Assembly (NCBI GenBank): GCA_035644015.1 | Contig: DASQPJ010000281.1 | Coordinates: 1 to 39,680 of the forward strand | Origin: Sporichthyaceae bacterium | Lineage (GTDB): Bacteria; Actinomycetota; Actinomycetes; Sporichthyales; Sporichthyaceae | Direction of reading: 5' to 3' | Length of the DNA stretch: 39,680 nt | In this document: positions 6,939-25,916 of the stretch, one piece after another | How the letters are laid out: the number at the start of each line of letters is the position of its first letter | How positions within the stretch are numbered: position 1 is the first letter of the stretch | The notes under the pieces: model-generated | The model's database searches: none | Seen by the model: the letters and a program-made list of their open reading frames with translations, nothing else | What the model was told of the DNA's origin: nothing | Translations under genes and position numbers: made by a program

Positions 6939-7733
6939 TCAGACGTCCTGGCGAAGAAAACGCACTGTGGCGGCGCCGAACAGCAACCCGGACCAGGCGG
7001 AGAAGACCCCGAGGGCGACGGCGCGGGAGCCGATGTGCCAACCGAGCGGGTGGCCCCACATGGCCTCGCCGGCGGCCGCCGGTAGATAGGGCGCGAACCA
7101 CCGGGTACCCGACCCGGGCAACAGGAAAATCATGATCGGCACCACGTAGAACATCGCCACCAGGGCGCTGATCGCGGCTGCGGTGCCGCGCAGCAGACCA
7201 CCCAGGCTCAATCCGATCACCGCGACGAGCACCATGTACATCGCCGCCCAGCACCCCGTCGTCCACGGACGGGGATCGGCCAGCTCGATCGTCCAACCCC
7301 GGACGCGCAGTTCACCGACGCCGACGAACACCGCAGCCGGAATCGCGACCAGGGCAACGACAGTTACCACCGCGACCACCGCGACCAGCTTCGCCCAGAG
7401 CACCGGCATCCTCCTCGGCGTGACGGTCAGCGCGGATCGCATTACCCCGGTCGCGTAATCCGCGCTGATCACCAGGACCCCGAGTACGCCGAGTGCGAGC
7501 GGGCACAGCCCGACCCCGAGCAGCACGTCGATGCCGGGGTTGAAGCCCAAGTACCCCCACCCGTCCGGCGGCGCTTGGGTGGTCGCCGCAATCTGGAAGG
7601 CCGACCCGACAACCACCACCACGATCAGCAACGGCGCGACCCCGTTCGAGCGCAGCGACAGGAACTTCGTGCACTCCGCCCGCGTCGCGCGCGCTTGTGT
7701 CGGACCGAGTCGGGGCGCGGCGGACGACCTCAT
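6939..7733 (-). CDS. ABC-2 type transporter permease (DrrB-like)
   Basis: Six-TM ABC-2-like protein. The N-terminus MRSSAAPRLGPTQARATRAECTKFLSLRSNG matches the usual AEWxKLRS-type start of these permeases. The same frame stays open and codon-biased up to a TTG at 8036, which overlaps the upstream TGA, so the protein may be ~100 aa longer (see findings). Confidence 0.8.
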   Translation of the reverse strand: MRSSAAPRLGPTQARATRAECTKFLSLRSNGVAPLLIVVVVVGSAFQIAATTQAPPDGWGYLGFNPGIDVLLGVGLCPLALGVLGVLVISADYATGVMRSALTVTPRRMPVLWAKLVAVVAVVTVVALVAIPAAVFVGVGELRVRGWTIELADPRPWTTGCWAAMYMVLVAVIGLSLGGLLRGTAAAISALVAMFYVVPIMIFLLPGSGTRWFAPYLPAAAGEAMWGHPLGWHIGSRAVALGVFSAWSGLLFGAATVRFLRQDV

Positions 7734-8032
7734 CTGGGCCGCTGCGGCCAGGGCCGTCCGCAGTCGGTGCGCGGATGCGCCCACTCTGGCCCGCAGGCCG
7801 GCCAGCCGCGTCGGGCCCGGAACGCGAAGGACCCCGGCTCGCAGTACGGCGCCAACCCCGATCACCTCGCACAGCAGCGCGTAGGCCGACCATGCACTGG
7901 CCCGCGGACCCGCCGCCAACAGCACGGTGGCCGCGCTGACCAACGCGGCGCCGTACCAGCCGAGGATCCGGTTGCCCGAACGCGACGGATCACCCGACGG
8001 TTCGGCCGGCAGCCCGCTCAATCCCGAGGCGC

Positions 8033-9199
8033 TCAAGCCACGGCCTCGATGTACTGCGCGGCCGCAGCGGCGCCCCCCGCGGCCTGGAACGCGTCCCCGA
8101 CATGCTGGGCGGCCTTGCGGTGCCGGGGCTCGTCCAACACCAGGTCGAGGGCCTCGCCCAATCGCTCGGGGGTGATGCCGCCGAAGGGCACCCGGATGCC
8201 CACGTCGGCGGCAACCACCTGGTTGGCGACGACGGGTTGGTCGTCCCGCATCGGCGCCACCACCAACGGCACGCCGTACCAGAGCGCCTGGCAAACGGTG
8301 TTGTGGCCCGCCTGGCAAACCACCGCCGAGCACCAGGGCAGCAGTTCCAGCTGCGGGACAACCGGCAGCACGAGGACCGAGGAGCTCGACGCGGCATTCT
8401 CGAGGAGGTCCGCCGGGTCGACGATGATCCCCTGCAGTCGATCCCGCCGATCCCGCAGCGCCGCGTGGGCGGCGGCCAGGAAGACGGCCCCGGCATCGGC
8501 GTTGGCCGCGCCGAGGCTGACCAGCACCAACTTGCGATCATCGAGCCACTCCCAGAGGAAGTCCCCGAACGCGGGACGAGGGTGGATCGACGGGCCCACG
8601 AAGCAGATGGGACCGGACGGTGCCGACACCGGGCCGGTCAACTCCGGGGTGGTGAACGCGATGATCAAATGCGGAGAGAACCGCGGGTCCTTTCCGCCGA
8701 GGGGATCACCCGTACGGGACCGCAGATCGTCGAAGCGTTCGTTCAACCAGGCGTCCACCAACGGCATACCGTCCAGTGCCCCGGGGAATTCCGCCGACGT
8801 TGTCGCGGAGGTGATCCACGGGATGCCGAGCCGCTCGGCGATCAGCGCGCCGGCCACGGCCTGCTGGTCGACCACCATGACGTCCGGACGGAATTCCTCG
8901 ACCGCCGCGAGCACGTCCGGCGCCATCACCTCGCCGAGTGGGATCAGGAAGTCCTCCCAGAGGAACTGCAACGCGGACAGGCCGCACGGCGGCGCCGGGC
9001 TTTCGAACGGCTCGCCCTGCCTGCCGCGGGGCAGCGCGCACGGGTAGATCTGCGCGGTACGGCCGGCCAGCGCCCCGACGATCTCCGGCATGCCCGCCCA
9101 GGCGACCTGGTGGCCGCGCGCGGTCAGCTCGGCGGCCACCCCGACGGCGGGGTCGACGTGGCCGACCAGCGGTGGCACGACGAACAGGTATCGGGTCAT
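8033..9199 (-). CDS. GT1-family glycosyltransferase (MGT/UDP-glycosyltransferase-like), paralogue 1
   Basis: N-terminus MTRYLFVVPPLVGHVDPAVGVAAELTARGH. C-terminal nucleotide-sugar motif VVCQAGHNTVCQALWYGVPLVVAPMRDDQP. ATGA overlap with the upstream ATPase gene. Confidence 0.9.
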   Translation of the reverse strand: MTRYLFVVPPLVGHVDPAVGVAAELTARGHQVAWAGMPEIVGALAGRTAQIYPCALPRGRQGEPFESPAPPCGLSALQFLWEDFLIPLGEVMAPDVLAAVEEFRPDVMVVDQQAVAGALIAERLGIPWITSATTSAEFPGALDGMPLVDAWLNERFDDLRSRTGDPLGGKDPRFSPHLIIAFTTPELTGPVSAPSGPICFVGPSIHPRPAFGDFLWEWLDDRKLVLVSLGAANADAGAVFLAAAHAALRDRRDRLQGIIVDPADLLENAASSSSVLVLPVVPQLELLPWCSAVVCQAGHNTVCQALWYGVPLVVAPMRDDQPVVANQVVAADVGIRVPFGGITPERLGEALDLVLDEPRHRKAAQHVGDAFQAAGGAAAAAQYIEAVA

Positions 9200-10113
9200 G
9201 CCGCACCCACGTCCACTGATCGGAACTCCACCGAATCCCGGGTCAGTCCGAGAAACGCCTCCTCCAGCGACATCCGATCAACGCGCAGTTCGTTGATCCG
9301 AATGCGGTGCTCCCAGGCCAGATCACCGATTTGCTCGGCGCTGTGCCCACGCACCGTCAGCACACCCGGGGCGGGCGCGCTGATGTCCACCCGGGGCCCC
9401 GCCAGCACCATGGTCAGGCGAACCGCCTCCGGGGTGCACACGTGCACCTGCGCCGGCGCGGCGGTGGCGATGAACTCCTCGACGGTGGTGTCCGCGACCA
9501 GCCGACCGCGGCCGATCACGATCAACCGCTGCGCGGTCAGCGCCATCTCCGAGAGCAGGTGGGACGAGACGAAAACGGTCCGGCCCTGCGCGGCCAGGTG
9601 CCGCAGCAGGCCACGGACCCAGCGGATGCCCTCGGGGTCCAGGCCGTTCACCGGCTCGTCGAGCATCACCGTCGCCGGGTCGCCCAACAGCGCGGCGGCG
9701 ATGCCGAGCCGCTGACCCATGCCCAGCGAAAACTCCCCGGCGCGGCGGCGCGTCACCCCGGCCAACCCCACCAAGTCCAGGACCTCCCCGACGCGACGTC
9801 GACCGATGCCGTTGGTCTGGGCGAGGGCGAGCAAGTGGTGGTAGGCCGGACGCGCGGCGTGTACCGCGCGGGCGTCCAGCAACACGCCCAGTTCGGCCAT
9901 CGGCACGGCGGCACTGCGGTAAGGCTTTCCGTTGACCCGCACCGACCCCGAGGTCGGCCGGTCCAGGGCCGCGATCATCCGCATCGTGGTCGACTTCCCG
10001 GCCCCGTTCGGCCCCAGGAACCCGGTCACCACGCCGGGCGCAACCGTGAACGACAGGTCATCGACCGCCGTCGCGTCCCCATAGCGTTTGGTCAGCCCAC
10101 TGACCTCGATCAC
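9196..10113 (-). CDS. ABC transporter ATP-binding protein (DrrA-like, ABC-2 subfamily)
   Basis: Walker A GPNGAGKST, signature FSLGMGQRL, Walker B VMLDEP. GTG start at 10113 overlaps the upstream stop (GTGA). Confidence 0.93.
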   Translation of the reverse strand: MIEVSGLTKRYGDATAVDDLSFTVAPGVVTGFLGPNGAGKSTTMRMIAALDRPTSGSVRVNGKPYRSAAVPMAELGVLLDARAVHAARPAYHHLLALAQTNGIGRRRVGEVLDLVGLAGVTRRRAGEFSLGMGQRLGIAAALLGDPATVMLDEPVNGLDPEGIRWVRGLLRHLAAQGRTVFVSSHLLSEMALTAQRLIVIGRGRLVADTTVEEFIATAAPAQVHVCTPEAVRLTMVLAGPRVDISAPAPGVLTVRGHSAEQIGDLAWEHRIRINELRVDRMSLEEAFLGLTRDSVEFRSVDVGAA

Positions 10114-11981
10114 GCCGGCACTTCCAGCGGGGCACCGGCCGCCGCCCGCTCGTTCGCGAGCGTCAGCAGTTCCTCGAGTGCCCGGTGCATACCGTCGATG
10201 AGCTCACGGGGCTGCGGTACTGCGGCCTCGACGCACAGGATGGTGAGGAAGAGTCGGTCCCCGTGACTGGCGACCACGAAGTTGACCATCGTGCCGCCCT
10301 CGTCGGCCGGCCCGATGAAGTGGGCGGTCTCGACCGGCGATCCGGCCAGGGCACCCATCGGCCGCTGCTCACGGACGTGGGACACGATGAGGTTCCACTT
10401 GCGCTCGCTCCGCTGGCGATCGTGGCGCATCCGATGCAGTTTGTAGTGCTGCAGCGAACGGATTACCCACGGCGGTATCTGGTCCAGCCAGTCGTCGAGC
10501 AGGTGCGGGCCCCGGACGACCAACACACGTTTCGCCCTAGCGGTGACGGCACCGATCGTGATCAATCGCTGCCACGGGTCGGTGAGGTCGGTGCCCAGCG
10601 TGGTCTTCAGGAACCCGACCCGGTTACCGAACGTACGACGTGGCGCATTCGCCCGATCCAGGCCCACCGGCACGTTCGCCACCAGCGACGGCGTGGGCAG
10701 GCTGTCCCGCGCGGACAGATACGCCCGCATCGCACCGGCGACGAGCACCAGCACGACGTCGTTGATCGTGACCCCGGCCGCGTCCTTGATCCGCGTCACG
10801 TCGGCCATGTCCAGCGTGGAACTGGCGAGGGTCTTTCGTCCGGTGAACGGTCGGTAGGGCCGGCACATCGCGGTGTCTCTATTGCTCGGCAGGACGACCG
10901 CCGAGGCTGCCATGGCTGCCTTCGCCGCGGCCGAACTGGTTCGCGTGGCGCGCACCAGGGCGGGCAGCCGGTGCGCTGCCCTGGCCTGGTCCGCCAGCCC
11001 CTCGACAAGCAGCCGCCGCGCGCTCGGTACGGGCTGCGACTCCGCTGTCTGCGTCGGCTCGGACCCGACATCGCTCACCAGGATCTGCAGTGTATTCAGC
11101 AGTGCGAACCCGTCAGTGACACAGTGATGGACCGTCAGCACGACGGTCTGCCGACCATCCGCCAGACCGTGGACCAGGGTCAACCGCCACAGCGGCCGCC
11201 GTCGGTCCAGGCCACGCCCGGCCTGCTCGGCGCAGAAGGCGTCGAGCACGTCCGCCGTGCCCGGGGCAGCGATGGTGTGCTCCTCCACGTGATGGGTGAT
11301 GTCGAAGTCGGCATCGTCGACGTACACCGGATGACCGAGCCCGAACGGAACGCCCACCACCCGCCACCGGAAGGCAGGCAGGGCACCCAGCCGCTCCGCG
11401 ACGTGGTGGCGCAACTGCGCCACGTCGAGCAGGGTCGACGATCCGTCCGCGGCGACCCGCGGACGCAACCGCAGCACCGCAAGACAATTCGCCGTCGTGC
11501 CGGAGTACTCGCCGGAATAGAAGGCGGAGTCGAGCCCCGACAATCGTCGGGCTGCGCGCCGGCGAGCCACGACTGCCTCGGCCCTGCTGTCCGTTTCGTG
11601 CCGGCCGGTCATCAGCACAGGGACCAGGATGCACAGCAAGAACACCGCGCCCAGCGCGAGGTGTCCCGATCGGTGCTCGCCACGTTCGACAGCCGCTACA
11701 GCGGCGGTCGTCCACATGGCGGCGTTGGCCGCACCGGCAAATCGGCCGCTCACCCCGAGCCGGCGCCACCGACCGCCGCGAGGCGCGGTGAACGCCGCGA
11801 GCGTAGCCACGGCCAGGCCGGCTCCGATGGCCCACCGAGAGACCCACCAGGACGGTCGATCGAGTTGCAGCCACACCAGGGTGCCCAGCAGCCCGACGAG
11901 CGCACCGACGACCAGTGCGATCTTCTGCTCACGCGTGGGCGGCGGGTTGAACCGCCGGAACGTTCGGCTCAGCGTTTTCAC
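10110..11981 (-). CDS. WS/DGAT-family acyltransferase (HHxxxDG) fused to an N-terminal ~130-aa four-TM domain
   Basis: Track ORF 10110..12497. I start it at GTG 11981, which overlaps the GT stop (GTGA). Residues 1-130 contain about four hydrophobic segments. From LSGLDSAFY onward the sequence is WS/DGAT-like, with the active-site motif HHCVTDG encoded at 11109-11129. Confidence 0.8.
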   Translation of the reverse strand: MKTLSRTFRRFNPPPTREQKIALVVGALVGLLGTLVWLQLDRPSWWVSRWAIGAGLAVATLAAFTAPRGGRWRRLGVSGRFAGAANAAMWTTAAVAAVERGEHRSGHLALGAVFLLCILVPVLMTGRHETDSRAEAVVARRRAARRLSGLDSAFYSGEYSGTTANCLAVLRLRPRVAADGSSTLLDVAQLRHHVAERLGALPAFRWRVVGVPFGLGHPVYVDDADFDITHHVEEHTIAAPGTADVLDAFCAEQAGRGLDRRRPLWRLTLVHGLADGRQTVVLTVHHCVTDGFALLNTLQILVSDVGSEPTQTAESQPVPSARRLLVEGLADQARAAHRLPALVRATRTSSAAAKAAMAASAVVLPSNRDTAMCRPYRPFTGRKTLASSTLDMADVTRIKDAAGVTINDVVLVLVAGAMRAYLSARDSLPTPSLVANVPVGLDRANAPRRTFGNRVGFLKTTLGTDLTDPWQRLITIGAVTARAKRVLVVRGPHLLDDWLDQIPPWVIRSLQHYKLHRMRHDRQRSERKWNLIVSHVREQRPMGALAGSPVETAHFIGPADEGGTMVNFVVASHGDRLFLTILCVEAAVPQPRELIDGMHRALEELLTLANERAAAGAPLEVPA

Positions 11982-13147
11982 GCCAACACCTCCATGTGAT
12001 CGGCGGCGGTGGCGGCGCCACCCGCGGCCCGAAAGGAGTCCCCCAGGTACTCGGCACACTTGCGGTACATCGGGTCGTCGAGGACCGCGTCGATGGCCTC
12101 GCCCAGTCGCTGGGCGGTGATCCGCCCGAATCGCACCCGCATGCCGGCGCCCGCGGTGACGACCTGACCGGCCACCGTCGGCTGGTCGTCCACGATCGGC
12201 GCCACCACCAGGGGAACGCCGTGCCAGAGTGTCTCGCAGACGGTGTTGTGCCCGGCGTGACAGACCACCGCCGAGCAGTGCGGAAGCAACTGCACCTGCG
12301 GCACCGCCGCCAGCACCAGGACGTCGTCGGTGACCGGGGCGCCCGCGAGGAGGTTGCCGGGGTCGACGATGACACCTTGCAGGCGGTCGGCGCGGTCGGT
12401 GAGGGCGGCGTGAGCGGCCGTCAGAAACGCCGAACCCGCGTCGGTGTTGACCGTACCCAAGCTGACCAGCACGAGCCTGCGCGTGGCGTCGAGCCATTCG
12501 ACGGGGAACTGCCCGTAGCCCGGCCGGGCCGCGATCGACGGACCCACGAAGCGGAGCGGTCCGCCCGGGGATACCGCACAGGCGGAGAGTTCCGGGGTGG
12601 TGAACGCGATGATCAGGTGCGGGGAGAACCGCAGGTCGGCGCCACCCGGCGGGACACCCATACGGTCATGCAACGCGCGCAGCAGGTCGCGCACCCAGGC
12701 CTCGACCAGCGGCATGCCATCGCGGGCCGCGACGAATTCCGCGGACGTCGTCGCGGACGTCACCCAGGCAATGCCCAACTGCTCGGCCACCAGCGCGCCC
12801 GCCACCGTCTGTTGGTCGACGATCAGGACGTCCGGACGGAACTGCTCCGCAGCCGTGCGCACACCCGGCACCATCGCCTCGCCGAGTGGGATCAAGAACT
12901 GCTCCCACAGGAACTGCAACGCGGCCGGGCCGCGGAGGCCCGGAGGGCGACCGACCGGTGCACCGGAGGCATCCCGGGGCACCGCGCAGTCGAAGACCTC
13001 GGCGCTCGGACCTGCGAGGCGGGCGATGATCTCGGACTGCCCGGCCCAGGCCACCCGGTGGCCACGCGCCGTGAGTTCGGCGGCCACGCCGACCAGCGGG
13101 TTGATGTGCCCGACCAGCGGGGGCACCACGATCAGGAACCGGCTCAT
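11978..13147 (-). CDS. GT1-family glycosyltransferase, paralogue 2
   Basis: Track ORF 11978..13576. The real start is ATG 13147 (MSRFLIVVPPLVGHINPLVGVAAELTARGH), which overlaps the upstream stop (ATGA). It is collinear with paralogue 1 over its whole length (roughly two thirds identical by eye) and shares the motif VVCHAGHNTVCETLWHGVPLVVAPIVDDQP. Confidence 0.9.
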   Translation of the reverse strand: MSRFLIVVPPLVGHINPLVGVAAELTARGHRVAWAGQSEIIARLAGPSAEVFDCAVPRDASGAPVGRPPGLRGPAALQFLWEQFLIPLGEAMVPGVRTAAEQFRPDVLIVDQQTVAGALVAEQLGIAWVTSATTSAEFVAARDGMPLVEAWVRDLLRALHDRMGVPPGGADLRFSPHLIIAFTTPELSACAVSPGGPLRFVGPSIAARPGYGQFPVEWLDATRRLVLVSLGTVNTDAGSAFLTAAHAALTDRADRLQGVIVDPGNLLAGAPVTDDVLVLAAVPQVQLLPHCSAVVCHAGHNTVCETLWHGVPLVVAPIVDDQPTVAGQVVTAGAGMRVRFGRITAQRLGEAIDAVLDDPMYRKCAEYLGDSFRAAGGAATAADHMEVLA

Positions 13148-13974
13148 GAGGCGGCCCGCAGTCCGGGAGTGGTCGGCAGCGTGACGGCAACCCCTTGCTC
13201 GGCCAGCCAGTCCAGGATCAGCGCGCTGATCTGTTCGGGGGCCCCGGAGAGCACGAAGTGGTCCTGCTCCGCCACCACGGCGGTGCGACAGTCGGGCAGC
13301 GCGTGCGGCAGCCGATCGGCCAGACCGACCAGGTCGGAATCGGCGGCGTACACGGCGAATACGGGGCAACGAATCTGCCAGAACTCCATGGGATCCAGCA
13401 GCAGCTCGCTGGCCAGGATGTCCCGGGCCAGGGACGTGGTGCGCAGCATGCGGGCCGCCCGCAGCGCCAGGCGACCCATGTGTGAACCGTGCTCCGCGGT
13501 GATCGAGGCGATGGACTCCTCGAGGTTCGGATCTGTTCTGCCGTGATGCAGGCTGGGGGCGAGTTGGATCGCCCAATCCGGCGTGGCCGGCTCCGATTCG
13601 ATCGCGAAGATGCTCGCCACCCGGTCCGGGTGCAGGACGGCCATACCGAACGCGACCATGCCGCCGAAGCAGTTGCCCACGAGGTGCACCGGACCAGCGA
13701 TGCCGAGTTCGTCGAGCAGGGCCGGGAGATCCTCGACGAAACGTTCCAGTTGATAACCCGAATCCGGCCGGGTGGTGCGGCCATGACCACGCTGGTCGTA
13801 CATGACGACATCGAGGCCCGCCTCCGCCAAGGCGGGGGCCACCGTGAAGTAGTAGGTGGCCAACGTGTCGGCCGGGAAACCGTGCACCAGCACCACGGTC
13901 GCCGCCGGCGGCCGATCGGAGGGACCGAGACGCTCCACGTGGAAACGCAACCCGGCGACCTCGTGGAAGGTCAT
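13144..13974 (-). CDS. alpha/beta-fold hydrolase/acyltransferase with a Cys nucleophile (GNCFG)
   Basis: HG oxyanion motif (VLVHGFPAD). The nucleophile elbow VGNCFGG has Cys102 (codon at 13669-13671) where Ser is usual. Candidate acid and His residues (YAADSD, EQDHF) sit near the C-terminus. Confidence 0.85.
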   Translation of the reverse strand: MTFHEVAGLRFHVERLGPSDRPPAATVVLVHGFPADTLATYYFTVAPALAEAGLDVVMYDQRGHGRTTRPDSGYQLERFVEDLPALLDELGIAGPVHLVGNCFGGMVAFGMAVLHPDRVASIFAIESEPATPDWAIQLAPSLHHGRTDPNLEESIASITAEHGSHMGRLALRAARMLRTTSLARDILASELLLDPMEFWQIRCPVFAVYAADSDLVGLADRLPHALPDCRTAVVAEQDHFVLSGAPEQISALILDWLAEQGVAVTLPTTPGLRAAS

Positions 13975-17200: not shown

Positions 17201-18865
17201 GACAGCCCAGCGGGCGAGCGCGAGCCGCTTCTCGGTCGGATCGACAATGCCGAGCCGGCACGGGGGCGCATTGCGTGCGTCCGGCGGCAGACCTGCCGCG
17301 ACCACGGCGGCGTCAGGTGCGGTGAGCATCCGCGCGAGCTCGGCCGGCGAGGATGCCGCCAGGCGCAGCACGCGCTCGGGCTCCTGCACCCGGGCCGCTG
17401 CGCGGGGGGTGGGCCGCGTGCTCGGCGCGATGGGCGCGACCGCCCCGGGGGCCTCCTCCAGCACGACGTGGGCGTTGATGCCACCGAAGCCGAAAGCGTT
17501 CACGCCGGCCCGGCGCGGGCCCTCGCACTCCCACGGCGCGGCCGTGGAGATGGTGCGGAACCGGGTGCCGGCCAGTGCCGGATGCGGTTGGTCGCAGTGC
17601 AGCGTCGGCAGCAGCACCCCATGGTGGATGGCCAACGCTGCCTTGACCAGCGAGGCCACCCCGGCGGCCGGCATGGTGTGCCCGATCATCGATTTCACCG
17701 AGCCGAGCACGGCGCGCTCCCGATCCTCCTCGGGTCCGCCGAACACGTCCTGAAGGGTCGTCAGTTCCGCCGTGTCGCCGACCGGCGTGCCGGTGCCGTG
17801 GGCCTCGAGCAAGCCGACCGAGCCGGGCGCAGCGGGATCCAGACCGGCCGCCGCCCAGGCGGCCCGCACCGCCCGGGTCTGCCCGCCGGGATCGGGGTTG
17901 GCCAGCGCCGCGGTGCGCCCGTCGCTGGCCACACCGGTGCCACGGATCACCGCGTACACGCGATCGCCGTCGCGCTCCGCATCAGCCAACCGCTTGAGGA
18001 CGACGATGCCGGTGCCCTCGCCCATCAGCACACCGTCGGCATCGCGGTGGAACGGCCGGATCCGCTGGCTCACCGACAGCGCGCCCAGCTGGGTGAAGAC
18101 GCTCCACATCGTGATGTCGTGGCAGTGGTGCACGCCGCCGGCCAGTACGACGTCGCAGCGTCCCCGGGTCAACTCCGCGACGGCCGCATCGACCGCCAGC
18201 AGCGAGGAGGCGCAGGCCGCGTCGACCGTGCTGGCCGGACCGCGCAGGTCCAGACGATTCGCGATCCGCGACGCCGCCAGGTTGGGCACGAGCCCGATGG
18301 CGGACTCGGGACGGTCCGGGCCCAGCTGGGCCACGAAAGCGTCGCGGATGGCCCCGAGTTGCTCGGCGCCGAGCTCCGGTGCCAGCTGGCCGAGGGTGCG
18401 CAGCATTTGATGCACGGTGCGCACCCGCTGATCCAGCCGGACCAGACCGGGCGTCAGATAGCCGCCCCGGCCGAGGATCACGCCGACCCGGTCGCGGTCG
18501 GGCAGCCACTCCGGGCCGCCGGCATCGGCGATGGCCGCCTCGGCCACGTGCAGCGCGATCAGCTGATCCGGTTCGATCGCGGACACCGAACTGGGCATGA
18601 TCCCGAATCGAGTGGGCTCCACCACGGCGTGTTCGTCGACGAACCCGCCTCGGCGGCAGTAGATCCGATCCGGCGCGCCCGGCCCCGTGGCGGCGGTCGG
18701 GTCGTAGTAGGCGGGATCCCACCGGTTCTCGGGTACCTCGGCGATGGCGTCGACGCCCGCCACCAGGTTGCGCCAATAGGTACTCAGATCGGGGGCACCG
18801 GGCAGCAGCACGGCCATGCCGACGATGGCGACGCCATCCGGGCGGTCCCGGCCGACGGCGTCCAT
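14291..18865 (-). CDS. type I PKS, KS-AT-DH-PPTase (C-terminal Sfp-type phosphopantetheinyl transferase domain)
   Basis: Track ORF 14291..19624. The real start is ATG 18865 or GTG 18868, overlapping the upstream TGA; the product is 1524 aa.
- KS, about 17456-18832: DAACASS Cys218, EAHGTGT, GHTMPAAG.
- AT, about 16316-17122: FLFPGLEDTF, GHSVGE Ser653, unusual GFHT specificity motif.
- DH, about 15116-15883: LRDH...P, HGPAFQ, LLDNVGQ.
- PPTase, about 14366-14998: GVGIDIE, FWAAKEAVAKA. Confidence 0.92.
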   Translation of the reverse strand: MDAVGRDRPDGVAIVGMAVLLPGAPDLSTYWRNLVAGVDAIAEVPENRWDPAYYDPTAATGPGAPDRIYCRRGGFVDEHAVVEPTRFGIMPSSVSAIEPDQLIALHVAEAAIADAGGPEWLPDRDRVGVILGRGGYLTPGLVRLDQRVRTVHQMLRTLGQLAPELGAEQLGAIRDAFVAQLGPDRPESAIGLVPNLAASRIANRLDLRGPASTVDAACASSLLAVDAAVAELTRGRCDVVLAGGVHHCHDITMWSVFTQLGALSVSQRIRPFHRDADGVLMGEGTGIVVLKRLADAERDGDRVYAVIRGTGVASDGRTAALANPDPGGQTRAVRAAWAAAGLDPAAPGSVGLLEAHGTGTPVGDTAELTTLQDVFGGPEEDRERAVLGSVKSMIGHTMPAAGVASLVKAALAIHHGVLLPTLHCDQPHPALAGTRFRTISTAAPWECEGPRRAGVNAFGFGGINAHVVLEEAPGAVAPIAPSTRPTPRAAARVQEPERVLRLAASSPAELARMLTAPDAAVVAAGLPPDARNAPPCRLGIVDPTEKRLALARWAVERGQAWRGRNEVWFSPEQLLGPGRGRVAFLFPGLEDTFAPQVSDVATHFRLPSPQLFDGADVVGDVGRHMVGVMTVGRLLDSALRRVGIVPDAVAGHSVGEWSAMLAGGLYSQEDIDKFLATYDPDAVQVPGLAFAALGAGADLVLDHLAALAASPAGTRIVLSHDNAPQQTIVCGPEDEVDAFVLALRARGVLGQVLPFRSGFHTPMLEPYLDSIRRSADLFDIHPANVPVWSATTAAEFPADAAAVRTLHTRHLLEPVRFRPMLAAMYTAGFRAFVQVGVGQLTALVADTLREQDHLSTAAGSARRDGLAQLRLAATALWSAGAEVDLAALAPAVRPRAVGVRLDLGGSLLSLDPEQLPALRAGMGARPPAAGRTDLRELAEHFPAVAEFEALMGEAERSALELLMAGRDAVIRRAIPPRVTQPALPVRPEPPVPSNRALTVSLDAMPYLRDHCFFSQRPGWPDASDRFPVIPATTIIEHLADAARASNPGQVVVALHDLRFERWVPVIPESSVEIGLEPTGDGRLAATFGSCARGNLELAVAYPPQPDPWPIDAAEQSPPLTASQMYARRWMFHGPAFQAVSALSAIGPAHIRGVITAPAAPGALLDNVGQILGCWIMARGVDRTLVFPIGMRAIRFHGPAPMPGVEVSCHIRIVECSEATLAADVQLCVPGPGGRDVVWAEVSGWRDRRFDSDAASLAVERCVEHNAHGALQPGDWVLMVDHCDDLATRDIVMRRYLSAAERELAERQPPRRRRGWALGRVAVKDAVRHLLWADGEGPLWPAEIFVGNDESGKPRVSGMHGRVLPDLEVSVAHCADTAVAVARPAAGFGVGIDIEQVSERPPGTVEFALGPAEREVLAACLATGGSPELWFTRFWAAKEAVAKARGTGLQGRPREFAVVAAEERQISVAVTDEGSESPLIYRVDISCITNRPGLPPRTYVVALAADGPMLPELSPGHYRERTVPA

Positions 18866-21800
18866 CACCAGCCCGACGCGGTGTAGACCACCGACCGCAG
18901 CGACTCGGGTCCCCAGGCGAGCTCGCGCAGCAGGGCGCCCGTGCCGGCCTCGGCATCGATCAGTCGGATCCCGCGGCGTGCGTAGTCCCGGGCCAGGTCC
19001 TCCGACACCATGCCCCCGTGGATTCCGTGGGGTGCCCACGGGCCCCAGTGCACGGTCAGACACCGGCCCCCGGTACGCCGCGACCAGCGCGCGCCGAGGG
19101 ACTCCAGGGCGTCGTTGGCCGCGGCGTAGTCGACCTGACCACGGTTGCCCAACGCGGCGGCGATGCTGCCGAACAGGACGGTGAACCGCGGGCCATCGGG
19201 CAGCTCGCCCAACGTGTCCAGGAGGGCGCGCGCTCCATCCGCCTTGGTGGCGAATACCCGCGCGAAGGAGCGCGCGTCCTTCTCGGCGAACATCTTGTCC
19301 TCGATGACGCCCGCCGCGAACACCACGCCGTCCAGCCGCCCGTACGTGGCGTGGACTTCCTTGGCCGCCCGGCTCAGCGCCGTCGGATCCGCGGCGTCCA
19401 CCGCGCGGTAGTGCGCCGCCGAACCCAGCGCGGTCAACTCGGTGAGAGTCGCGGTCACCTCCCGCGCAGCCAACAGGGCACCTGCGGCCGCGTCGACCTG
19501 CGCCATGGGGATGCCCTGGCGGGCGAGCACGGCACGCAATTGGGCCCGGTCCCGCGCCACGGCCGTGGCCGGGTCCTCCGGCTCGGTGGGCAACGTGGTG
19601 CGGCCCAGCAACTCCAGCCGGCACCCGGACGTGGCGGCGAGCGTCGCGGCGAAACGGGCGGTGATGCCCCGGGCACCACCGACCAGCAGCACGACGGCGT
19701 CCCGATCCAGGCCCAACGCCGCGGCCTCCGACGCGCCCTCACCGGCCGGTCCGGCGCCGGTATTCGCCAGCACGCCGAGAGCGGATTCCACCAGGGTCGG
19801 AGCGCGGCGGCCCGTGGCGCCCCACAACACCACGGGCTCGCGGCCCCCGGCCAGGAGCTCCTCCACCAACACCCGGCCGACGTTCTCCCCCGTGGCGTCC
19901 TCGATCTCGATCAGCCGTACGAGCATGTCCGGGTATTCACGGGCCAGGCTGCGGATCGCCCCGCGCAGACCGTCGGCGCGCCCCGACTCGGCGCCCGGGA
20001 AGTCCGCGGCCGGCCGGACCGTGAGCAGCAGACGTGGACGAGCGCGCAACGCGGCCTGGAGGGCGGGAACGCAGGTCGGCAGAACATCCGGGCCCTCCTC
20101 ACAGAGCGGGTCGAGCAGCAGCACACCGTCGATCGCACCGTCCGCCGCGCAGGCCTCGTGGGTTGCTTCACGCAGCAGCGCCTCGGCGCCATGCCCGCTC
20201 AACCGGGCGGCGACCTCAGCCGCGACGACACCCCCGCCCAGTACCAGGAACCGCGTCCCGGCAAGGGTTTCGGCCCCGGCACCTCCGGCGGGCAGCAGCG
20301 TCTCGACGTGCACCAGGCGGACCGGCGGGTGCCCGGTGATGGCCTGTTGCGCAACCGGCGCCGGTTCGGCGGACGGGCCGAGCAGTCGAGCGGCGAGCAA
20401 ATCGCTGAGCGCCAGGGCGGTGCGGGCCCGGGACAGCTCCTCGAGCTCGGCATCGCTGAGCGAATCCAGACCCGCCTGCCCACCGGTGGCGAGACGCTGG
20501 GCCAGCAGGCCCACGATCTCGGTGCGTTTGATGGAGTCGATCGACAGATCGCTCTCCAGGTCGAGGTCGGGCTCGATCATCTCGGGGGGATAGCCGGTGC
20601 GTTCCGCCACGATCTCGATGACGATGCGCAGCACCCCGTCGTGGTCGAGCGTCTCGACGGTCGGCGACTCGAGGGTCGGGGCGATGGCCGACGCCGCGAC
20701 GGAGGCCGGCGACCTGACGGGTGTGGGCGCCGCCAGTGCCGGGCCGGGCAGCGGAGCCGGGGAGGGCCGCGGGACGAACGATCCGTCAGAACCTAGATGG
20801 GCCAACAGAACGTCACGCTGCGCAGCCAACATCTCCCGGCCCGCGCGCAGGAAGTCCGCGATCAACGCATCCGTCGCGGCTTGGAACGAGTACCCATCAG
20901 CCGGCGTTGCCACCAACGGCTCTTTGATCGTGTGGGTCGGCGCCAGCGCACCGGGCAAGTAGTTACCGTCGGCGGTACGGACGAGGTGCCCGTCCACGGT
21001 CCAACCGGGGCAACGCGGGGCCGGCGCCGCAATGGCGTCGAGGGCATCGCGTCCACGCAACAGCCGTCCCGGGTCGACCTCGACGCCGCATACGGCCAGT
21101 GCGGCCAGCGCATCGAGAAAACCGGCGATGCCATCCCGCCGGTCCTCCAGTGCAATGGCCCGGTGGGGTCGGTCGCCGAGCACGGCCGATACGCAGCGGG
21201 TGAGTACCGCACCGGGCCCCGCCTCGACGAACACCCGGGCGCCCGCCGCATACATGGCCTCGATCTGGTCCACGAATCGCACCGGCGACACGAGCTGCGC
21301 CGCGAGCTCGGTCCGAATGTGGGCGGGGTCCGCCGGGTAAACCGCGGCGGTGCGGTTGGCGAACACGGGCAGTTCCGGGGAGCGGATCTCCCGGGTGGCC
21401 AGCACCTGCGCGAACAAGGAGCCCGCGTCGGCCACGACGGGGCTGTGGAACGCGCACGCGACCGGGATCCGCTTGACCGAGAAGCCGGCCGCGGCCAGCT
21501 CCCCGATCGCCCGCTCGATCTCGTCCGTGCCACCGGAGATCACCGTTTGCCGTGGGGCATTGAGATTGGCCGCGACCACGTGCCCGCACAGCCCGGCGGC
21601 GGCCAGCACGGCCTCGACCTCGGTGGCACCGGCGATCACCGCGGCCATGGCGCCGGGGTCGGCGCCCTCGCCGATCGCCTCGAGGATCACCCGGCCGCGT
21701 TCGTGGCTGAGCAACGGGAGGTGCTCGGCCGCCAGCACGCCGGCCGCACACAGCGCGACCAGTTCGCCGTAGCTGTGCCCGCCGACCAGATCGGGATACA

Positions 21801-24800
21801 CGCCGGCCATGGCCAGCAGGTCGGCAGCGGCCAGGCCGACCATGCCCAGGACCGGTTGCGCAATCCGGGTATCCACCAGTCGCGCCCGCGCCGTCGCGGC
21901 GGCCTCCGGCGTGAACGTCGCCGCCGGGAACAGTACCTCGGCGTACTCCGCACCCCACTGCAGGTGGCGCTGCAGCGGGGGGAAAGCCGCGAACAACTCG
22001 GCGAACATCCCGACCCGCTGACTGCCCTGTCCGGGGAACAGAAATGCTACCCGCGGCGACTCTGACTTATCGTCAGCCAGTTCACCGGTCGGTTCAGCAC
22101 TGGCGAGGTGCAGTCCCGCTGACGGTGTGGGCTCGCCCGCCAGCGCGCGGCGGAGCAGCACGATGAGTTCCGCGAGGTCCGTGGCGACGATCGCGATCTG
22201 GACCGGGCCGTGCCCGGATTCGGCCCGATGGGCCGCCGCCAACGCGAGGTCGCGCAGGCGCCAGGGATTGGGCTCGAGTTCGGCCAGGCGCAGCACTTCG
22301 GTCACGCCGGCTTGAGCCCGGGCGGAGTCCGCGCCGCGGAACAGGAACAACTCCGCGGGCCAAAGGTGGCGTCCGTGTACCGGGGCCGGGCTCTGGTGGG
22401 CCCGCAGCACGGCATGGAAGTTGGTACCGCCGAAGCCGAACGAGCTGACCCCGGCGACGCGTTGCGCGGCCGGCGCCGCCCACGGACGGGCCTCGGTGTG
22501 GAAAGCGAATGGACTGGTCGCCGCCTCCCAGGCGGGGTTCGGCCGGGTGAGGTGCAGCGTCGGCGGCTTGACGCCGGTGTGCAACGCCAGCGCCGCCTTG
22601 ATCGTCCCGGCCAGGCCGGCGGCACACTTGGTGTGGCCGATCTGCGATTTGACCGACCCGAGCGTGCAACTGCCCGGTGCCGCTCCCCCTTCGGTGAACA
22701 CCTCGGTCAGCGTGGTGAGTTCCGTGCGGTCGCCCACCACGGTGCCGGTGCCGTGCGCCTCGACCAATCCGACGTCCCCTGGCCCGATGCCGGCGCTGCG
22801 ATACGCGCGTTCCATCGCCGCCCGTTGGCCCTCGGGGCGGGGCGCGGTCAGACCCAGTGACCGTCCATCACTTGCACTGCCGACCCCGGCCACCACCGCG
22901 TAGATGCGGTCGCCGTCGCGTTCCGCGTCCGCGAGGCGCTTGAGCACCAGGCACGCCGCACCCTCCCCGAGCGCGATGCCGTCGGCTCCGGAGTCAAACG
23001 GCCGAGAGCGTCCGGTGGGCGACAGCGCCTGCACGGAGGCGAAGAGCAGATAATCGGTGATCCCGTTGTGCATGTCGGCACCGCCACACAGCACCATGTC
23101 CGCGGTCCCCGCGACGAGCTGGCTGCAGGCCACGTCCAGCGCCGCCAGCGACGAGGCGCAGGCCGCGTCCACGGTGAAGTTCGACCCGCCGAGGTCGAGC
23201 CGGTTGGCGATCCGTCCGGCGATGACGTTGGACAGCGTGCCGGGGAACGTGTCCTCGGTGACGGTCGGCAACTGCGCCGCGATCCCGTCCGGAATGCCAC
23301 CGAGGTAGCCGGGCAGCAGCGCTCCCACCATTCCCGCGCCGGACAGGTCGCTGCCCGCTTCGGCACCGAAGATCACGCTGGCGCGGGACCGGTCGAACGG
23401 ACGTCCCGCGGCGCCGGCACCCGGCTGACCCAGTGGGTCATAACCGGCGTCGAGCAGAGCCCGGCGGGCGACCTCGAGGGAGAGCAATTGGACCGGCTCG
23501 ATACTGCCGAGTGCGGTCGGCGGTATCCCGTAGCTCAGCGCGTCGAAGGGCACGGGTGAGATGAATCCGCCCCACTTGGACGGGGTGGTGCCCGAAGCCC
23601 CGTCCGCGGACCAGTAGATCGCCGGGTCCCAGCGTTCGGTCGGCACCTCGGTGACCGCGTCGACACCGGCGACGATGTTGGCCCAGTACGAGGCCAGATC
23701 CGGCGATTGCGGGAAGACGCAGGCCATGCCGACCACGGCAATGTCCAGCGGGGGCGCCGGTGCGTCTTCGGCGGCCGTCGCCTCGATAATCTGACGCCAC
23801 TTCAGTCCACGCTTGGCAAGGAGTTCGGCGGCACCCACGCTGACCGCGCCGTGCAGGTCGGCGATCGTGGTGATGTCGTCACGCAGGACCGCTACCTGAC
23901 CGGCCATGAACATGCCGCGGGCGAGCTGCCCGTCCTCGTCGATCTCCACCAGTTCGTCACCGACGCGCTCCAAACCCTTGCTGGCGATGCGCAGCCGCCC
24001 GACGTTGAGGTGCTCCAATCGCTCCCAGATCTCCCGCTCGGCGACCCCGGCGGCCCGCAATTCCTCGCGCAACCCCTCGAACTCGGCGGTGAACCCACTG
24101 TGCAGACACCGGGTGACGTGACCGGGCGCCGTCTGCAGCAGCGCAGTCCCCCGCGCGCGCAGCACCTGCCGCTGGAACTCCGGGAGCACCGCGCCGCAGG
24201 ACACCGCCTCAGCGCTGAACAGATAGGCGGTGCCCATCAGGCAGCCCGCCAACAGGCCGCCGGCCCCCGCCGCGGGTGGCGCCAACGGTGCGGCCATCGC
24301 GGCGACCAGCGCGGCCGACCGCTCGTCGTGAATGCCCCCGGCAAACAGCACCTCAACCCGCTCCGTGCCCTTCGCGGCGGCGAGGAAGTCCTCCAGGACG
24401 GCCAGTTGCGCCTCCCACAGGGCGAAGCTGTGCCGCGGCCCGATGTGCCCGCCGCATTCGGCGCCCTCGAAGATGAAGCGACGCGCCCCGTCGGCGAGGA
24501 ACTGTTGCAGCAGCCCCGGCGAGGGGACGTGTAAGAACGTGGTGATCCCGGCGTCCTCGAGTGCGCGAGCCTGTGACGGGCGACCGCCGGCGATAATCGC
24601 GTGCGTCGGGCGGGCGGTGAGCACCTCGGCGAGTTGCGCGGACCGCACTTCCTCCGGCGCGAAGCCGAGCACCCCGACACCCCAGGGCGCGTCACCGAGT
24701 TCGGCCGCCGTCTGGGCGAGCATCGCGCGGGTCTGTTCCGGCCCGGCCAGGGCCAGCGCGATGAACGGGAGCGCTCCCCCGGCGGCCACTGCGGCGGCGA

Positions 24801-25743
24801 AGCGCGGCTGATCACTGACCCTGGTCATGGGTCCCTGCGCCAGCGGCAGTCCGGTGCGCAGCACCTGGCACAACGGTGCGTCCGGGCCGAGCCAAGCGGT
24901 CGGCGCGCCCGGAACCGCCGCTGCCTCCATCAGGTCCGAGATCGACTCGTGCAGGGCGTGCACTGCGCGCTGCGCGGTGCCCCACCGGTTGGCGAAGATC
25001 GTGGCCAGCGAGCCGTCCTGGCCCACCGGCACTTCGATGCCCGCACCGCCACGACCACTGCGGCCGCGCAACACCCGTCGACCGTCGACCACCACTGTTT
25101 CCGAGCCGTCCATCCGGCGGATCAGGGCGGCGACCTCACCGGGGATCGATGACTCGGCAAGCAACGCGAGCTGGCTGTCGAGCACGACGCCGGCGGCGCC
25201 GACGGCCACCGCGGCAGCAGCGGTGCGCGGGCCGATGCCACCCGCGGCCCAAACCGGGACGGTGATCTGCGGTGCGTCCAGCAATTGCTGCAGCAGCACG
25301 AATGTGCCCAGCTCACCGACGCGTCCGCCGCTATCGGCACCCCGGGCGATGACGCCGTCGGCACCTGCCCCGACGGCGTCAACCGCCTCGGCCAGGTCGG
25401 TGACCTCGACCAGCACACGGTGCGCCCCGCGCAGGCGCCCGGCATCCCAACCGGGCACCTGCGCGGTGGCCAGCACGATGGTGTCGGGAGGTGCCCCCGC
25501 ACCGGCGGACAGATCGGCCGGGGTCAGCGAACAGCCGGGCGCGACCCGTACGCCGTAGGGACCACGGACCTCCGCAGCCAGGCGGGTCAGCGCCTCGCGC
25601 GCGGAGCGGTCCCCGGATCCCAGGTCCAGCACGCCCAGTGCGCCCGCGGCGCACAGCGCCGCGGCCAGGCCCGGATCCGGCGCGGCGAACGGTGTAATGC
25701 CGATGACGGTCTCGGCCCGGGCCCTCCGTAATTGCATGCCCAT
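18865..25743 (-). CDS. type I PKS, NMO-like / PfaD-like ER - KS - AT - ACP - KR
   Basis: 2292 aa; the second ATG at 25737 has better SD spacing.
- NMO-like domain 1, about 25099-25710: GADSGGRVG where EAGGH is expected.
- PfaD-like FMN enoyl reductase, about 23824-24855: LAQGPMTRVS, FEGAECGGHIG.
- KS, about 22396-23745: DAACASS Cys862, EAHGTGT, GHTKCAAG, PUFA/HglE-like VPxERWDP start.
- AT, about 21154-22050: FLFPGQGSQ, GHSYGE, AFHS.
- ACP, about 20389-20655: LESDLSIDSIK.
- KR, about 18889-20256: GGARGITA, catalytic Tyr in GQVDYAAAN. Confidence 0.93.
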   Translation of the reverse strand: MGMQLRRARAETVIGITPFAAPDPGLAAALCAAGALGVLDLGSGDRSAREALTRLAAEVRGPYGVRVAPGCSLTPADLSAGAGAPPDTIVLATAQVPGWDAGRLRGAHRVLVEVTDLAEAVDAVGAGADGVIARGADSGGRVGELGTFVLLQQLLDAPQITVPVWAAGGIGPRTAAAAVAVGAAGVVLDSQLALLAESSIPGEVAALIRRMDGSETVVVDGRRVLRGRSGRGGAGIEVPVGQDGSLATIFANRWGTAQRAVHALHESISDLMEAAAVPGAPTAWLGPDAPLCQVLRTGLPLAQGPMTRVSDQPRFAAAVAAGGALPFIALALAGPEQTRAMLAQTAAELGDAPWGVGVLGFAPEEVRSAQLAEVLTARPTHAIIAGGRPSQARALEDAGITTFLHVPSPGLLQQFLADGARRFIFEGAECGGHIGPRHSFALWEAQLAVLEDFLAAAKGTERVEVLFAGGIHDERSAALVAAMAAPLAPPAAGAGGLLAGCLMGTAYLFSAEAVSCGAVLPEFQRQVLRARGTALLQTAPGHVTRCLHSGFTAEFEGLREELRAAGVAEREIWERLEHLNVGRLRIASKGLERVGDELVEIDEDGQLARGMFMAGQVAVLRDDITTIADLHGAVSVGAAELLAKRGLKWRQIIEATAAEDAPAPPLDIAVVGMACVFPQSPDLASYWANIVAGVDAVTEVPTERWDPAIYWSADGASGTTPSKWGGFISPVPFDALSYGIPPTALGSIEPVQLLSLEVARRALLDAGYDPLGQPGAGAAGRPFDRSRASVIFGAEAGSDLSGAGMVGALLPGYLGGIPDGIAAQLPTVTEDTFPGTLSNVIAGRIANRLDLGGSNFTVDAACASSLAALDVACSQLVAGTADMVLCGGADMHNGITDYLLFASVQALSPTGRSRPFDSGADGIALGEGAACLVLKRLADAERDGDRIYAVVAGVGSASDGRSLGLTAPRPEGQRAAMERAYRSAGIGPGDVGLVEAHGTGTVVGDRTELTTLTEVFTEGGAAPGSCTLGSVKSQIGHTKCAAGLAGTIKAALALHTGVKPPTLHLTRPNPAWEAATSPFAFHTEARPWAAPAAQRVAGVSSFGFGGTNFHAVLRAHQSPAPVHGRHLWPAELFLFRGADSARAQAGVTEVLRLAELEPNPWRLRDLALAAAHRAESGHGPVQIAIVATDLAELIVLLRRALAGEPTPSAGLHLASAEPTGELADDKSESPRVAFLFPGQGSQRVGMFAELFAAFPPLQRHLQWGAEYAEVLFPAATFTPEAAATARARLVDTRIAQPVLGMVGLAAADLLAMAGVYPDLVGGHSYGELVALCAAGVLAAEHLPLLSHERGRVILEAIGEGADPGAMAAVIAGATEVEAVLAAAGLCGHVVAANLNAPRQTVISGGTDEIERAIGELAAAGFSVKRIPVACAFHSPVVADAGSLFAQVLATREIRSPELPVFANRTAAVYPADPAHIRTELAAQLVSPVRFVDQIEAMYAAGARVFVEAGPGAVLTRCVSAVLGDRPHRAIALEDRRDGIAGFLDALAALAVCGVEVDPGRLLRGRDALDAIAAPAPRCPGWTVDGHLVRTADGNYLPGALAPTHTIKEPLVATPADGYSFQAATDALIADFLRAGREMLAAQRDVLLAHLGSDGSFVPRPSPAPLPGPALAAPTPVRSPASVAASAIAPTLESPTVETLDHDGVLRIVIEIVAERTGYPPEMIEPDLDLESDLSIDSIKRTEIVGLLAQRLATGGQAGLDSLSDAELEELSRARTALALSDLLAARLLGPSAEPAPVAQQAITGHPPVRLVHVETLLPAGGAGAETLAGTRFLVLGGGVVAAEVAARLSGHGAEALLREATHEACAADGAIDGVLLLDPLCEEGPDVLPTCVPALQAALRARPRLLLTVRPAADFPGAESGRADGLRGAIRSLAREYPDMLVRLIEIEDATGENVGRVLVEELLAGGREPVVLWGATGRRAPTLVESALGVLANTGAGPAGEGASEAAALGLDRDAVVLLVGGARGITARFAATLAATSGCRLELLGRTTLPTEPEDPATAVARDRAQLRAVLARQGIPMAQVDAAAGALLAAREVTATLTELTALGSAAHYRAVDAADPTALSRAAKEVHATYGRLDGVVFAAGVIEDKMFAEKDARSFARVFATKADGARALLDTLGELPDGPRFTVLFGSIAAALGNRGQVDYAAANDALESLGARWSRRTGGRCLTVHWGPWAPHGIHGGMVSEDLARDYARRGIRLIDAEAGTGALLRELAWGPESLRSVVYTASGW

Positions 25744-25916
25744 CCCCTTGCGGTGCCAGTGCGAGCGGCATCAACCGCCGGACATGGAGGGGCCCTTGGT
25801 GGCGGAGCCCTCGCGTCGGAGGTCGATGAAGCGCCGGGTGGGCGCGACCGTCGGCAGATATTGGTCGGTTGTTCATCAAGGTCATTTCCGCGCGTCACGA
25901 AAACGCATCGCTTTTT

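Follow-up and report, generated by a model that had tools for sequence, protein, structure and literature searches.

A stretch of 39,680 nucleotides from a Sporichthyaceae bacterium (contig DASQPJ010000281.1 of assembly GCA_035644015.1; the whole stretch is called the window below) was analysed with regard to a string of nine minus-strand genes. These genes probably direct the synthesis of an exported, sugar-bearing lipid. The first five genes encode two polyketide synthases (PKS1 and PKS2), a free-standing acyl carrier protein (ACP), an alpha/beta-hydrolase and a family-1 glycosyltransferase (GT1a), and they form a conserved and widespread core cassette. The genes for a WS/DGAT-family O-acyltransferase and an ABC-2 exporter, among which a second glycosyltransferase (GT1b) is encoded, are an addition found in Sporichthyaceae-like lineages only. 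On balance it is likely that genes 1 to 5 constitute a Pfa-like iterative secondary-lipid cassette, that genes 6 to 9 are a lineage-specific supplement to it, and that both together yield a modified, exported glycolipid. The orphan Pfa-like core was known before; the extension of the Sporichthyaceae lineage with acyltransferase, second GT1 and exporter is new. The source, an uncultured actinobacterium from soil, belongs to the Sporichthyaceae or stands close to that family. Coordinates of all features are given in Table 1.

Relatives were sought using the dehydratase-phosphopantetheinyl transferase (DH-PPTase) half of PKS2 as query. A genome scan with one genome per species resulted in at least 522 loci confirmed by tblastn, of which the best 80 were fetched (64 from Streptomyces, 8 from Kitasatospora, 5 from Amycolatopsis and one each from Wenjunlia, Actinokineospora and Sporichthyaceae). 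Synteny was tested by searching the 80 loci with the nine window proteins (tblastn), contig ends excepted. PKS1, PKS2, the ACP and one GT1 were present in common order in every locus, at 41-68% identity, and the hydrolase was syntenic in 78, so that the entire five-gene cassette was recovered in 78 of the 80. The nearest named relative of the query was encoded by a Sporichthyaceae metagenome-assembled genome (MAG; 86% identity), followed at 40-56% identity by many Streptomyces, Kitasatospora and Pseudonocardiaceae and some Myxococcales. In a representative protein library, 425 clusters (50% identity) matched the DH-PPTase region at E<=1e-30. The full-length members among the best 150 matches mostly comprised about 1400-1600 aa and matched with their C-terminal part. 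By Pfam, the members P0172 (1583 aa) and P0241 (1842 aa) have the domain order of PKS2. Distant metagenome relatives with 41-43% identity in the DH-PPTase region retained the five-gene core as well, accompanied by a second hydrolase, S-adenosylmethionine (SAM)-dependent methyltransferases and LCM methyltransferases. A reading of the window made earlier from the sequence alone (the sequence-only reading) had held that the combination fits no cluster type that can be named. This was overstated, in view of the 78 loci, the 425 clusters and the top score of both synthases against the PfaA model. The literature search found no paper assigning a product to the cassette and no characterised homolog.

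The nine genes are best read as one translationally coupled operon, on evidence as strong as sequence can provide, because all junctions overlap by 4 nt, a non-coding lead of lower GC content precedes the first gene, and identical contigs carry the same arrangement. All nine open reading frames (ORFs) were intact, and eight of eight junctions were NTGA overlaps, with the starts taken as in the metagenome contigs. Three soil-metagenome contigs from different samples (L001, L002, L003) encoded identical proteins in identical order, and independent gene callers had predicted identical starts. The uninterrupted minus-strand string and the single operon proposed in the sequence-only reading were both confirmed in this way. 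The spacer ahead of PKS1 had a GC content of 0.63, compared to about 0.70 elsewhere (whole window about 70%), and is likely the promoter and regulatory region of the operon. No sigma-70 consensus site was detected in the spacer by consensus scan, promoter and terminator consensus scans at both operon ends returned no sites, and an Rfam scan of the entire window gave zero matches. The last gene, encoding the permease, is followed by a gap of 112 nt.

The domain orders reported earlier for both synthases were borne out by Pfam and NCBIfam. Pfam assigned NMO, ketosynthase (KS), acyltransferase (AT), PP-binding and ketoreductase (KR) domains to PKS1, and KS, AT, PS-DH and ACPS domains to PKS2. The top NCBIfam model was PfaA (TIGR02813) in both cases, with 842 bits for PKS1 and 471 bits for PKS2; both scores are below the cut-off of 1010. 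Because PfaA is the top model for both, the two synthases are placed by sequence among the Pfa-like secondary lipid synthases. Both KS domains bear the EVPxxRWDP motif and a Cys-His-His triad. PKS1 further showed the motifs DAACASS, HGTGT, GHT and GHSYG, and its in-line ACP (LSIDSIKRTE) carries the IDSIKR motif of the type known from polyunsaturated fatty acid (PUFA) synthases at aa 1736. In comparison to solved structures, PKS1, PKS2 and the KS of PKS2 gave generic type I polyketide synthase matches, by which PfaA-like KS domains could not be told from modular ones. The PfaC-type chain 6riw was set apart from these, as the sole listed solved KS that aligned across nearly the whole KS of PKS2.

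The N-terminus of PKS1 had been described as a tandem of enoyl reductase (ER) domains, and this description held: ER1 and ER2 each matched the FabK model TIGR03151 (E<=0.01) and solved FabK structures. With regard to the PfaD-type reductases named in the sequence-only reading, the two domains matched only the FabK model, and models of the PfaD family were not among the hits listed. Both FabK and PfaD belong to the flavin mononucleotide (FMN)-dependent TIM-barrel reductases and are related. The fusion of two FabK-type domains in tandem to a PfaA-like synthase is conserved across the family. ER1 is about 61% identical to its counterpart in locus L084, which suggests that it has been kept under selection.

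The KS of PKS2 retains the active-site Cys (DAACASS) and thus is not a chain-length factor (CLF). In an alignment of 16 sequences (A1), His1011, FHGPAFQ and DxxxQ of the DH domain and GIDIE and FWAAKEA of the PPTase domain were invariant. Together the two synthases hold a full reductive set, with two KS-AT pairs that are active by motif, a KR, a PS-type DH and two FabK-type ERs.

Pfa-like "secondary lipid" synthases were surveyed by Shulse & Allen 2011 (PMC3098273), with actinobacterial types L and M among the uncharacterised ones. Membership in this class requires a minimum of one KS, one ACP and one KR, to which AT, DH, ER and PPTase are joined in varying combinations within a pfa-like cluster; all of these domains were found in the operon. 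Type M, as listed in the survey, comprises Frankia, S. avermitilis, Actinosynnema and Renibacterium, which lie outside the 80 loci kept. According to a survey from 2026 (PMC13291983), products are known for only a handful of Pfa-like synthases. The window shares with the secondary lipid synthases an iterative type I fatty acid/polyketide synthase with PfaA-like KS-AT-ACP-KR, an FMN-type ER, a second protein with KS and DH, a PPTase, coexistence with primary fatty-acid synthesis in actinomycetes, and the lack of an assigned product. It differs from them in the tandem FabK-type ER fused to the PfaA-like N-terminus, in a second protein of KS-AT-DH-PPTase instead of KS-CLF-DH2(-AT), in a single in-line ACP combined with a free ACP, and in the hydrolase and GT1 as fixed parts of the cassette. 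Regions labelled "hglE-KS, T1PKS" by antiSMASH in Streptomyces genome reports probably are of the same kind, the label itself being circumstantial. The recurrent label "hexacosalactone A 13-18%" in such reports was rejected as evidence of relatedness, since it is a low-similarity ClusterBlast match.

The enediyne polyketide synthases (PKSE) carry a C-terminal, self-activating DH-PPTase didomain as their hallmark, and their KS is related to the PUFA-synthase type. Since PKS2 ends in such a didomain and both KS domains are PfaA-like with EVPxxRWDP, the operon was also considered as a split enediyne-type synthase or a true PUFA synthase, giving a conjugated polyene or a polyunsaturated acid that is glycosylated later. 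This assignment is very improbable. The two family-conserved ER domains on PKS1 argue for reduced chains. A PKSE is a single polypeptide of the order KS-AT-ACP-KR-DH-PPTase, accompanied by a hotdog thioesterase; here the system is split over two proteins, ER domains are added, and ACP and KR are located on PKS1, apart from the DH-PPTase pair. Release would be served by an enzyme of the alpha/beta-hydrolase fold; none of the nine products matched a hotdog thioesterase. Every operon gene has a family match, which leaves no unassigned ORF in the operon, and enediyne accessory genes were absent, as stated in the sequence-only reading. Among the 150 best matches to the DH-PPTase query, only two were longer than 1650 aa, and neither had the PKSE order; the longest, P0300 (1912 aa), was ACP-KR-AT-DH-PPTase by Pfam. 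A PUFA synthase (PfaABCDE) has a tandem ACP array, a KS-CLF pair and a FabA-type DH/isomerase, in contrast to the one in-line ACP plus free ACP, the active second KS, the GHSVG-type AT and the PS-DH observed here. No match to a FabA-like domain was reported in the nine products, and the PfaA scores given above are below the cut-off.

The small ACP reached 20.9 bits with the Pfam PP-binding model (cut-off 20.8). Its motif reads D-L-E-x-E-S-I-D, and Ser51 was invariant in 83 of 83 aligned sequences. The hydrolase matched Abhydrolase_1 (E=8.5e-25) and, weakly, the Thioesterase family of Pfam; solved structures gave only the generic folds of epoxide hydrolases, dehalogenases and esterases. It is presumed to be a chain-release thioesterase or a transacylase. 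The nucleophile is Cys102 in GNCFG, and His239 is conserved. The name "Cys-hydrolase" used earlier is correct for the window and cannot be generalised, since Cys is a lineage-specific replacement: of 79 aligned sequences, 75 have Ser in the GN(S/C)xG motif, and the four with Cys are those of the window, L004, L039 and L046. L004 is a Sporichthyaceae locus; L039 and L046 belong to Streptomyces. To judge from the alignment, the switch from Ser to Cys appears to have arisen more than once, and it might tilt the enzyme from hydrolysis towards acyl transfer.

Both glycosyltransferases gave UDPGT and EryCIII-like Pfam matches and are therefore GT1/GT-B enzymes. Scores with the macrolide glycosyltransferase (MGT) model TIGR01426 were 168 bits for GT1a and 151 bits for GT1b, and the cut-off of 260 was not reached. 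The nearest solved relatives of GT1a include OleI, Kcn28 and YjiC. By these similarities the two enzymes are assigned to the group that glycosylates lipophilic aglycones. The catalytic His14 and a C-terminal DDQ are conserved in GT1a, which is 86% identical to the sole GT1 of locus L085 and is the ortholog of the core glycosyltransferase. GT1b shares 64% identity with GT1a; with the single GT1 enzymes of L085 and L004 it shares 65-68%. Its distance to GT1a is thus much the same as that to the GT1 enzymes of two other Sporichthyaceae-like lineages, so that it is an older duplicate or an acquisition placed between the transporter genes and not a recent tandem duplicate. The genes for ATPase and permease are adjacent in L085, L004 and L086, without a gene at the GT1b position; GT1b was found only in the window sequence and the identical metagenome contigs.

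Among the 80 loci, WS/DGAT, ATPase and permease were present only in the Sporichthyaceae locus. The order core-WS/DGAT-ATPase-permease recurred in L085, L004 and L086. L085 is the closest relative, with PKS2, ACP, hydrolase and GT1 at 83-93% identity and a single GT1. In the diverged locus L088 a WS/DGAT gene is located directly behind the core GT1, and its product is only 40% identical to that of the window. It had been stated beforehand that unrelated phylogenetic distributions of the genes, in separate transcription units, would speak against a common system. The distributions of core and addition do differ, yet translational coupling and the position of the WS/DGAT gene in L088 link the addition to the core and argue that both work together. 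In other lineages the core carries different accessories. In 25 of the 80 loci a SAM-dependent methyltransferase came after the GT1, and LCM-type methyltransferases were found in L088 and L089. Methyltransferases in this position are consistent with a product that is released and tailored later. The variable accessories, methyltransferases in some lineages and acyltransferase plus pump in others, fit a released glycolipid that is decorated differently by lineage.

The WS/DGAT protein matched both Pfam domains of its family over their full length (PF03007, WS_DGAT_cat, E=3.7e-47; PF06974, WS_DGAT_C, E=1.4e-15) and reached 290.6 bits with TIGR02946, slightly under the cut-off of 309.95. The motif HHCVTDG at residue 285 conforms to the HHxxxDG signature of the family. 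Ahead of the catalytic domain lies a membrane anchor of about 145 aa with strong hydrophobic helices at 21-39 and 108-126. This N-terminus was found neither in L004 nor in relatives of 40-56% identity, which span about 75% of the query; full-length relatives were few and all came from metagenomes or MAGs. The WS/DGAT family is best known for the synthesis of wax esters and triacylglycerol. With matches of this quality, the protein was also considered as a storage-lipid enzyme which joins the chain of the synthases, or ordinary acyl-CoA, to fatty alcohol or diacylglycerol and so forms wax esters or triacylglycerol, the GT1 enzymes and the pump being unrelated to it. This is very improbable. The gene overlaps both neighbours by 4 nt, L085, L004 and L086 repeat the order GT1-WS/DGAT-ABC, and in L088 a diverged WS/DGAT follows the GT1. 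A membrane anchor and an adjacent exporter would be unexpected for a cytosolic storage-lipid enzyme, and no fatty-acyl reductase gene was found among the operon products or the flanks.

The ATPase matched ABC_tran of Pfam. Its best NCBIfam models were the lantibiotic-protection ATPase (179 bits), DrrA (TIGR01188, 167 bits) and GldA (162 bits); none of the three scores reached its cut-off. The exporter had been called DrrAB-type. The ATPase is only broadly like DrrA, whose model has a cut-off of 312 bits and was outscored by the lantibiotic-protection model. The permease matched PF12679 (ABC2_membrane_2) with 27.9-28.3 bits (cut-off 27.2). Its C-terminal portion of about 250 aa is an ABC-2 domain (NosY/ABC2_membrane_2/4-like) with PF12730-like relatives. 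Homologs of 34-41% identity, named ABC-2 permeases in their sources, cover only the C-terminal 60-72%, and an N-terminal extension of about 110 aa is missing from the ABC-2 homologs of about 270 aa. The N-terminal extensions of permease and WS/DGAT are confined to the sub-lineage of the window.

For the glycolipid favoured here, the following route is proposed. The built-in Sfp-type PPTase would prime both ACPs, and the two synthases would work iteratively, with the KS domains probably serving early and late elongation. The resulting chain would be long and mostly saturated and would retain at least one hydroxyl group. The hydrolase may free the chain, GT1a may add a hexose, probably glucose, to the lipid, and GT1b may attach a second sugar or glycosylate a second site. 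At the cytoplasmic membrane, the anchored WS/DGAT would esterify a hydroxyl group of the glycolipid, or transfer the PKS acyl chain to an alcohol. The ABC-2 pump would finally take the product out of the inner leaflet and deliver it to the envelope or into the medium. Iterative synthesis, glycosylation or acylation, and export had been suggested in the sequence-only reading in the same succession. This is the best-supported reading of the operon, with the correction that the cassette is widespread and only the back half is unusual.

Several points weigh against this route. Chain length, hydroxyl position, sugar and WS/DGAT acceptor are predictions, since no member of the cassette has a known product. 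A thioester reductase and an acyl-activating enzyme are absent, and there is no evident route by which a released acid would enter the WS/DGAT reaction. The GT1 enzymes and the ATPase scored below the curated cut-offs of every named subfamily, and ABC-2 pumps of such type also act in immunity. ER1 covers only positions 24-220 of the 307 positions of the FabK model and, because about the last 90 are missing, may be structural only.

The locus for phthiocerol dimycocerosates and phenolic glycolipids (PDIM/PGL) of mycobacteria comprises Pps and Mas, FadD26/28, PapA5, DrrABC, MmpL7 and GT1 enzymes. The operon resembles it in the combination of a polyketide lipid, an HHxxxDG acyltransferase, GT1 enzymes and an ABC-2 exporter for an outer-envelope lipid. 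It differs in iterative Pfa-like synthases in place of modular Pps plus Mas, in an acyltransferase of the WS/DGAT family (PF03007) and not of the PapA type, and in one permease gene instead of two. AMP-binding and MMPL domains were found nowhere in the window. No fatty acyl-AMP ligase (FAAL)/FadD loader, thioester reductase or MmpL gene was present in the window, flanks included; absence of the loader and the reductase had been noted before. The comparison with PDIM/PGL drawn in the sequence-only reading is thus retained as a shared functional logic and reduced to an analogy, with FAAL, Pps/Mas and MmpL missing and a different acyltransferase family.

Another parallel in function is the heterocyst glycolipid pathway of cyanobacteria with Hgl synthase, HglT and DevBCA, which is described in two surveys (PMC13291983, PMC3098273) and likewise includes a Pfa-like iterative synthase, a very long hydroxylated chain, glycosylation and ABC export, there for the construction of an envelope layer. 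In contrast to that pathway, no thioester reductase is encoded among the nine products or in the flanks, so that the product would not be a fatty-alcohol glycoside. The export genes encode an ABC-2 pair and no membrane-fusion or TolC-type partner, whereas the DevBCA permease is MacB/FtsX-like; a WS/DGAT is added, and the host phylum is another one. Identity with a true PUFA synthase, an enediyne polyketide synthase, an Hgl island or a PDIM/PGL locus was rejected in each case, defining features being missing.

A secreted bioactive glycolipid was considered as a further alternative, for example a macrocyclic acylglucose dilactone of the fattiviracin, cycloviracin or glucolypsin type. The hydrolase would then form the sugar-acyl esters, and the pump would serve secretion or self-protection. 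Such dilactones consist of C17-C33 hydroxy fatty acids with glucose, in some cases 2-O-methyl-glucose, are closed by sugar-6-O-acyl esters, and are produced by Streptomyces, Nocardia and Kibdelosporangium (PMC4365757). The literature search turned up no report of gene clusters for them. The core would offer the long-chain synthase, a GT1 of the glucosyltransferase-like MGT group, a hydrolase suited to ester chemistry and, for 25 of the 80 loci, the SAM methyltransferase; the best model of the ATPase, that of lantibiotic protection, is an immunity model. The assignment is nevertheless unlikely. Neither S. microflavus nor Kibdelosporangium is among the 80 loci kept, the cassette is far commoner than reports of such compounds, the iso-branched, 2-methylated chains of glucolypsin are unexplained by the cassette, and the link is one of resemblance only. 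A bolder and likewise rather improbable reading is that the core may be the machinery for very-long-chain hydroxy-fatty-acid glycosides which were never tied to genes, either a new class or those of the fattiviracin/cycloviracin/glucolypsin group, with the Sporichthyaceae version being acylated and exported to the envelope.

Table 1. Features of the operon and of its flanks in the window (nucleotide positions; ~, approximate domain limits)
Feature	Position	Strand	Length	Remarks
PKS1	18865-25743	minus	2292 aa	ER1-ER2-KS-AT-ACP-KR
PKS1 ER1	~25087-25677	minus		residues 23-219, FabK model TIGR03151
PKS1 ER2	~23818-24876	minus		residues 290-642, FabK model TIGR03151
PKS1 KS	~22549-23745	minus		Pfam
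PKS1 AT	~21178-22044	minus		Pfam
PKS1 ACP	~20488-20622	minus		single PP-binding stretch, aa 1708-1752
PKS1 KR	~19033-19698	minus		Pfam
PKS2	14291-18868	minus	1525 aa	KS-AT-DH-PPTase
PKS2 KS	~17594-18832	minus		Pfam
PKS2 AT	~16265-16963	minus		Pfam, GHSVG
PKS2 DH	~14999-15871	minus		PS-DH type, PF14765
PKS2 PPTase	~14423-14704	minus		ACPS Pfam match, Sfp-type
Free-standing ACP	13971-14294	minus	107 aa	
Alpha/beta-hydrolase	13144-13974	minus	276 aa	
GT1a	11978-13147	minus	389 aa	GT-B family-1, macrolide-glycosyltransferase-like
WS/DGAT-family O-acyltransferase	10110-11981	minus	623 aa	
ABC transporter ATPase	9196-10113	minus	305 aa	ABC-2 (DrrA-like) group
GT1b	8033-9199	minus	388 aa	between ATPase and permease genes
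ABC-2 permease	6939-8036	minus	365 aa	
Non-coding spacer	25744-26540	none	~0.8 kb	between PKS1 and divergent multicopper-oxidase gene
Lipoprotein-like ORF	5630-6826	minus	398 aa	signal/lipobox-like N-terminus (VLAACTGG), Thr/Pro-rich linker
Family 2A encapsulin shell gene	2164-3093	minus		SrpI-like, PF19307, E=7e-101
Cysteine desulfurase	363-2231	minus	622 aa	Aminotran_5 begins at residue 238

Among the products encoded in the flanks are the encapsulin and the cysteine desulfurase of Table 1, a multicopper oxidase and an acyl-CoA dehydrogenase, as well as an ArsP permease and a GntR regulator. The encapsulin gene is located directly upstream of the desulfurase gene, whose product has a long N-terminal extension; the two have the look of an ordinary encapsulin-cargo pair with no relation to the lipid operon. 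The lipoprotein-like ORF behind the permease gene gave no significant match to Pfam, NCBIfam or PDB (best, Polysacc_deac_1, E=0.048). It was rejected as a cluster member, being separated from the permease gene by 112 nt, without a family match and not located beside the cluster in relatives. The acyl-CoA dehydrogenase gene (28119-29258) was also rejected, since it lies beyond the divergent multicopper-oxidase gene and no evidence links it to the operon. Two long ORFs at 29769-31262 (minus) and 32641-33429 (plus) had no Pfam match. The former overlaps plus-strand ORFs, failed the GC3 filter and may not be a gene.

As a system the operon is not of a new kind, nor does any of its features conflict with present understanding. 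The added acyltransferase and exporter hint at the nature of the core product, a hydroxylated, glycosylated and esterifiable lipid, and at its destination; an anonymous label from genome mining thus becomes a definite hypothesis, open to test in relatives that are in culture. If the tentative assignment of the core to hydroxy-fatty-acid glycosides is true, the acylated and exported product of the Sporichthyaceae version would be a Gram-positive counterpart of heterocyst glycolipids. The cassette itself occurs in hundreds of actinomycete species, including many cultured strains of Streptomyces, Kitasatospora and Amycolatopsis.

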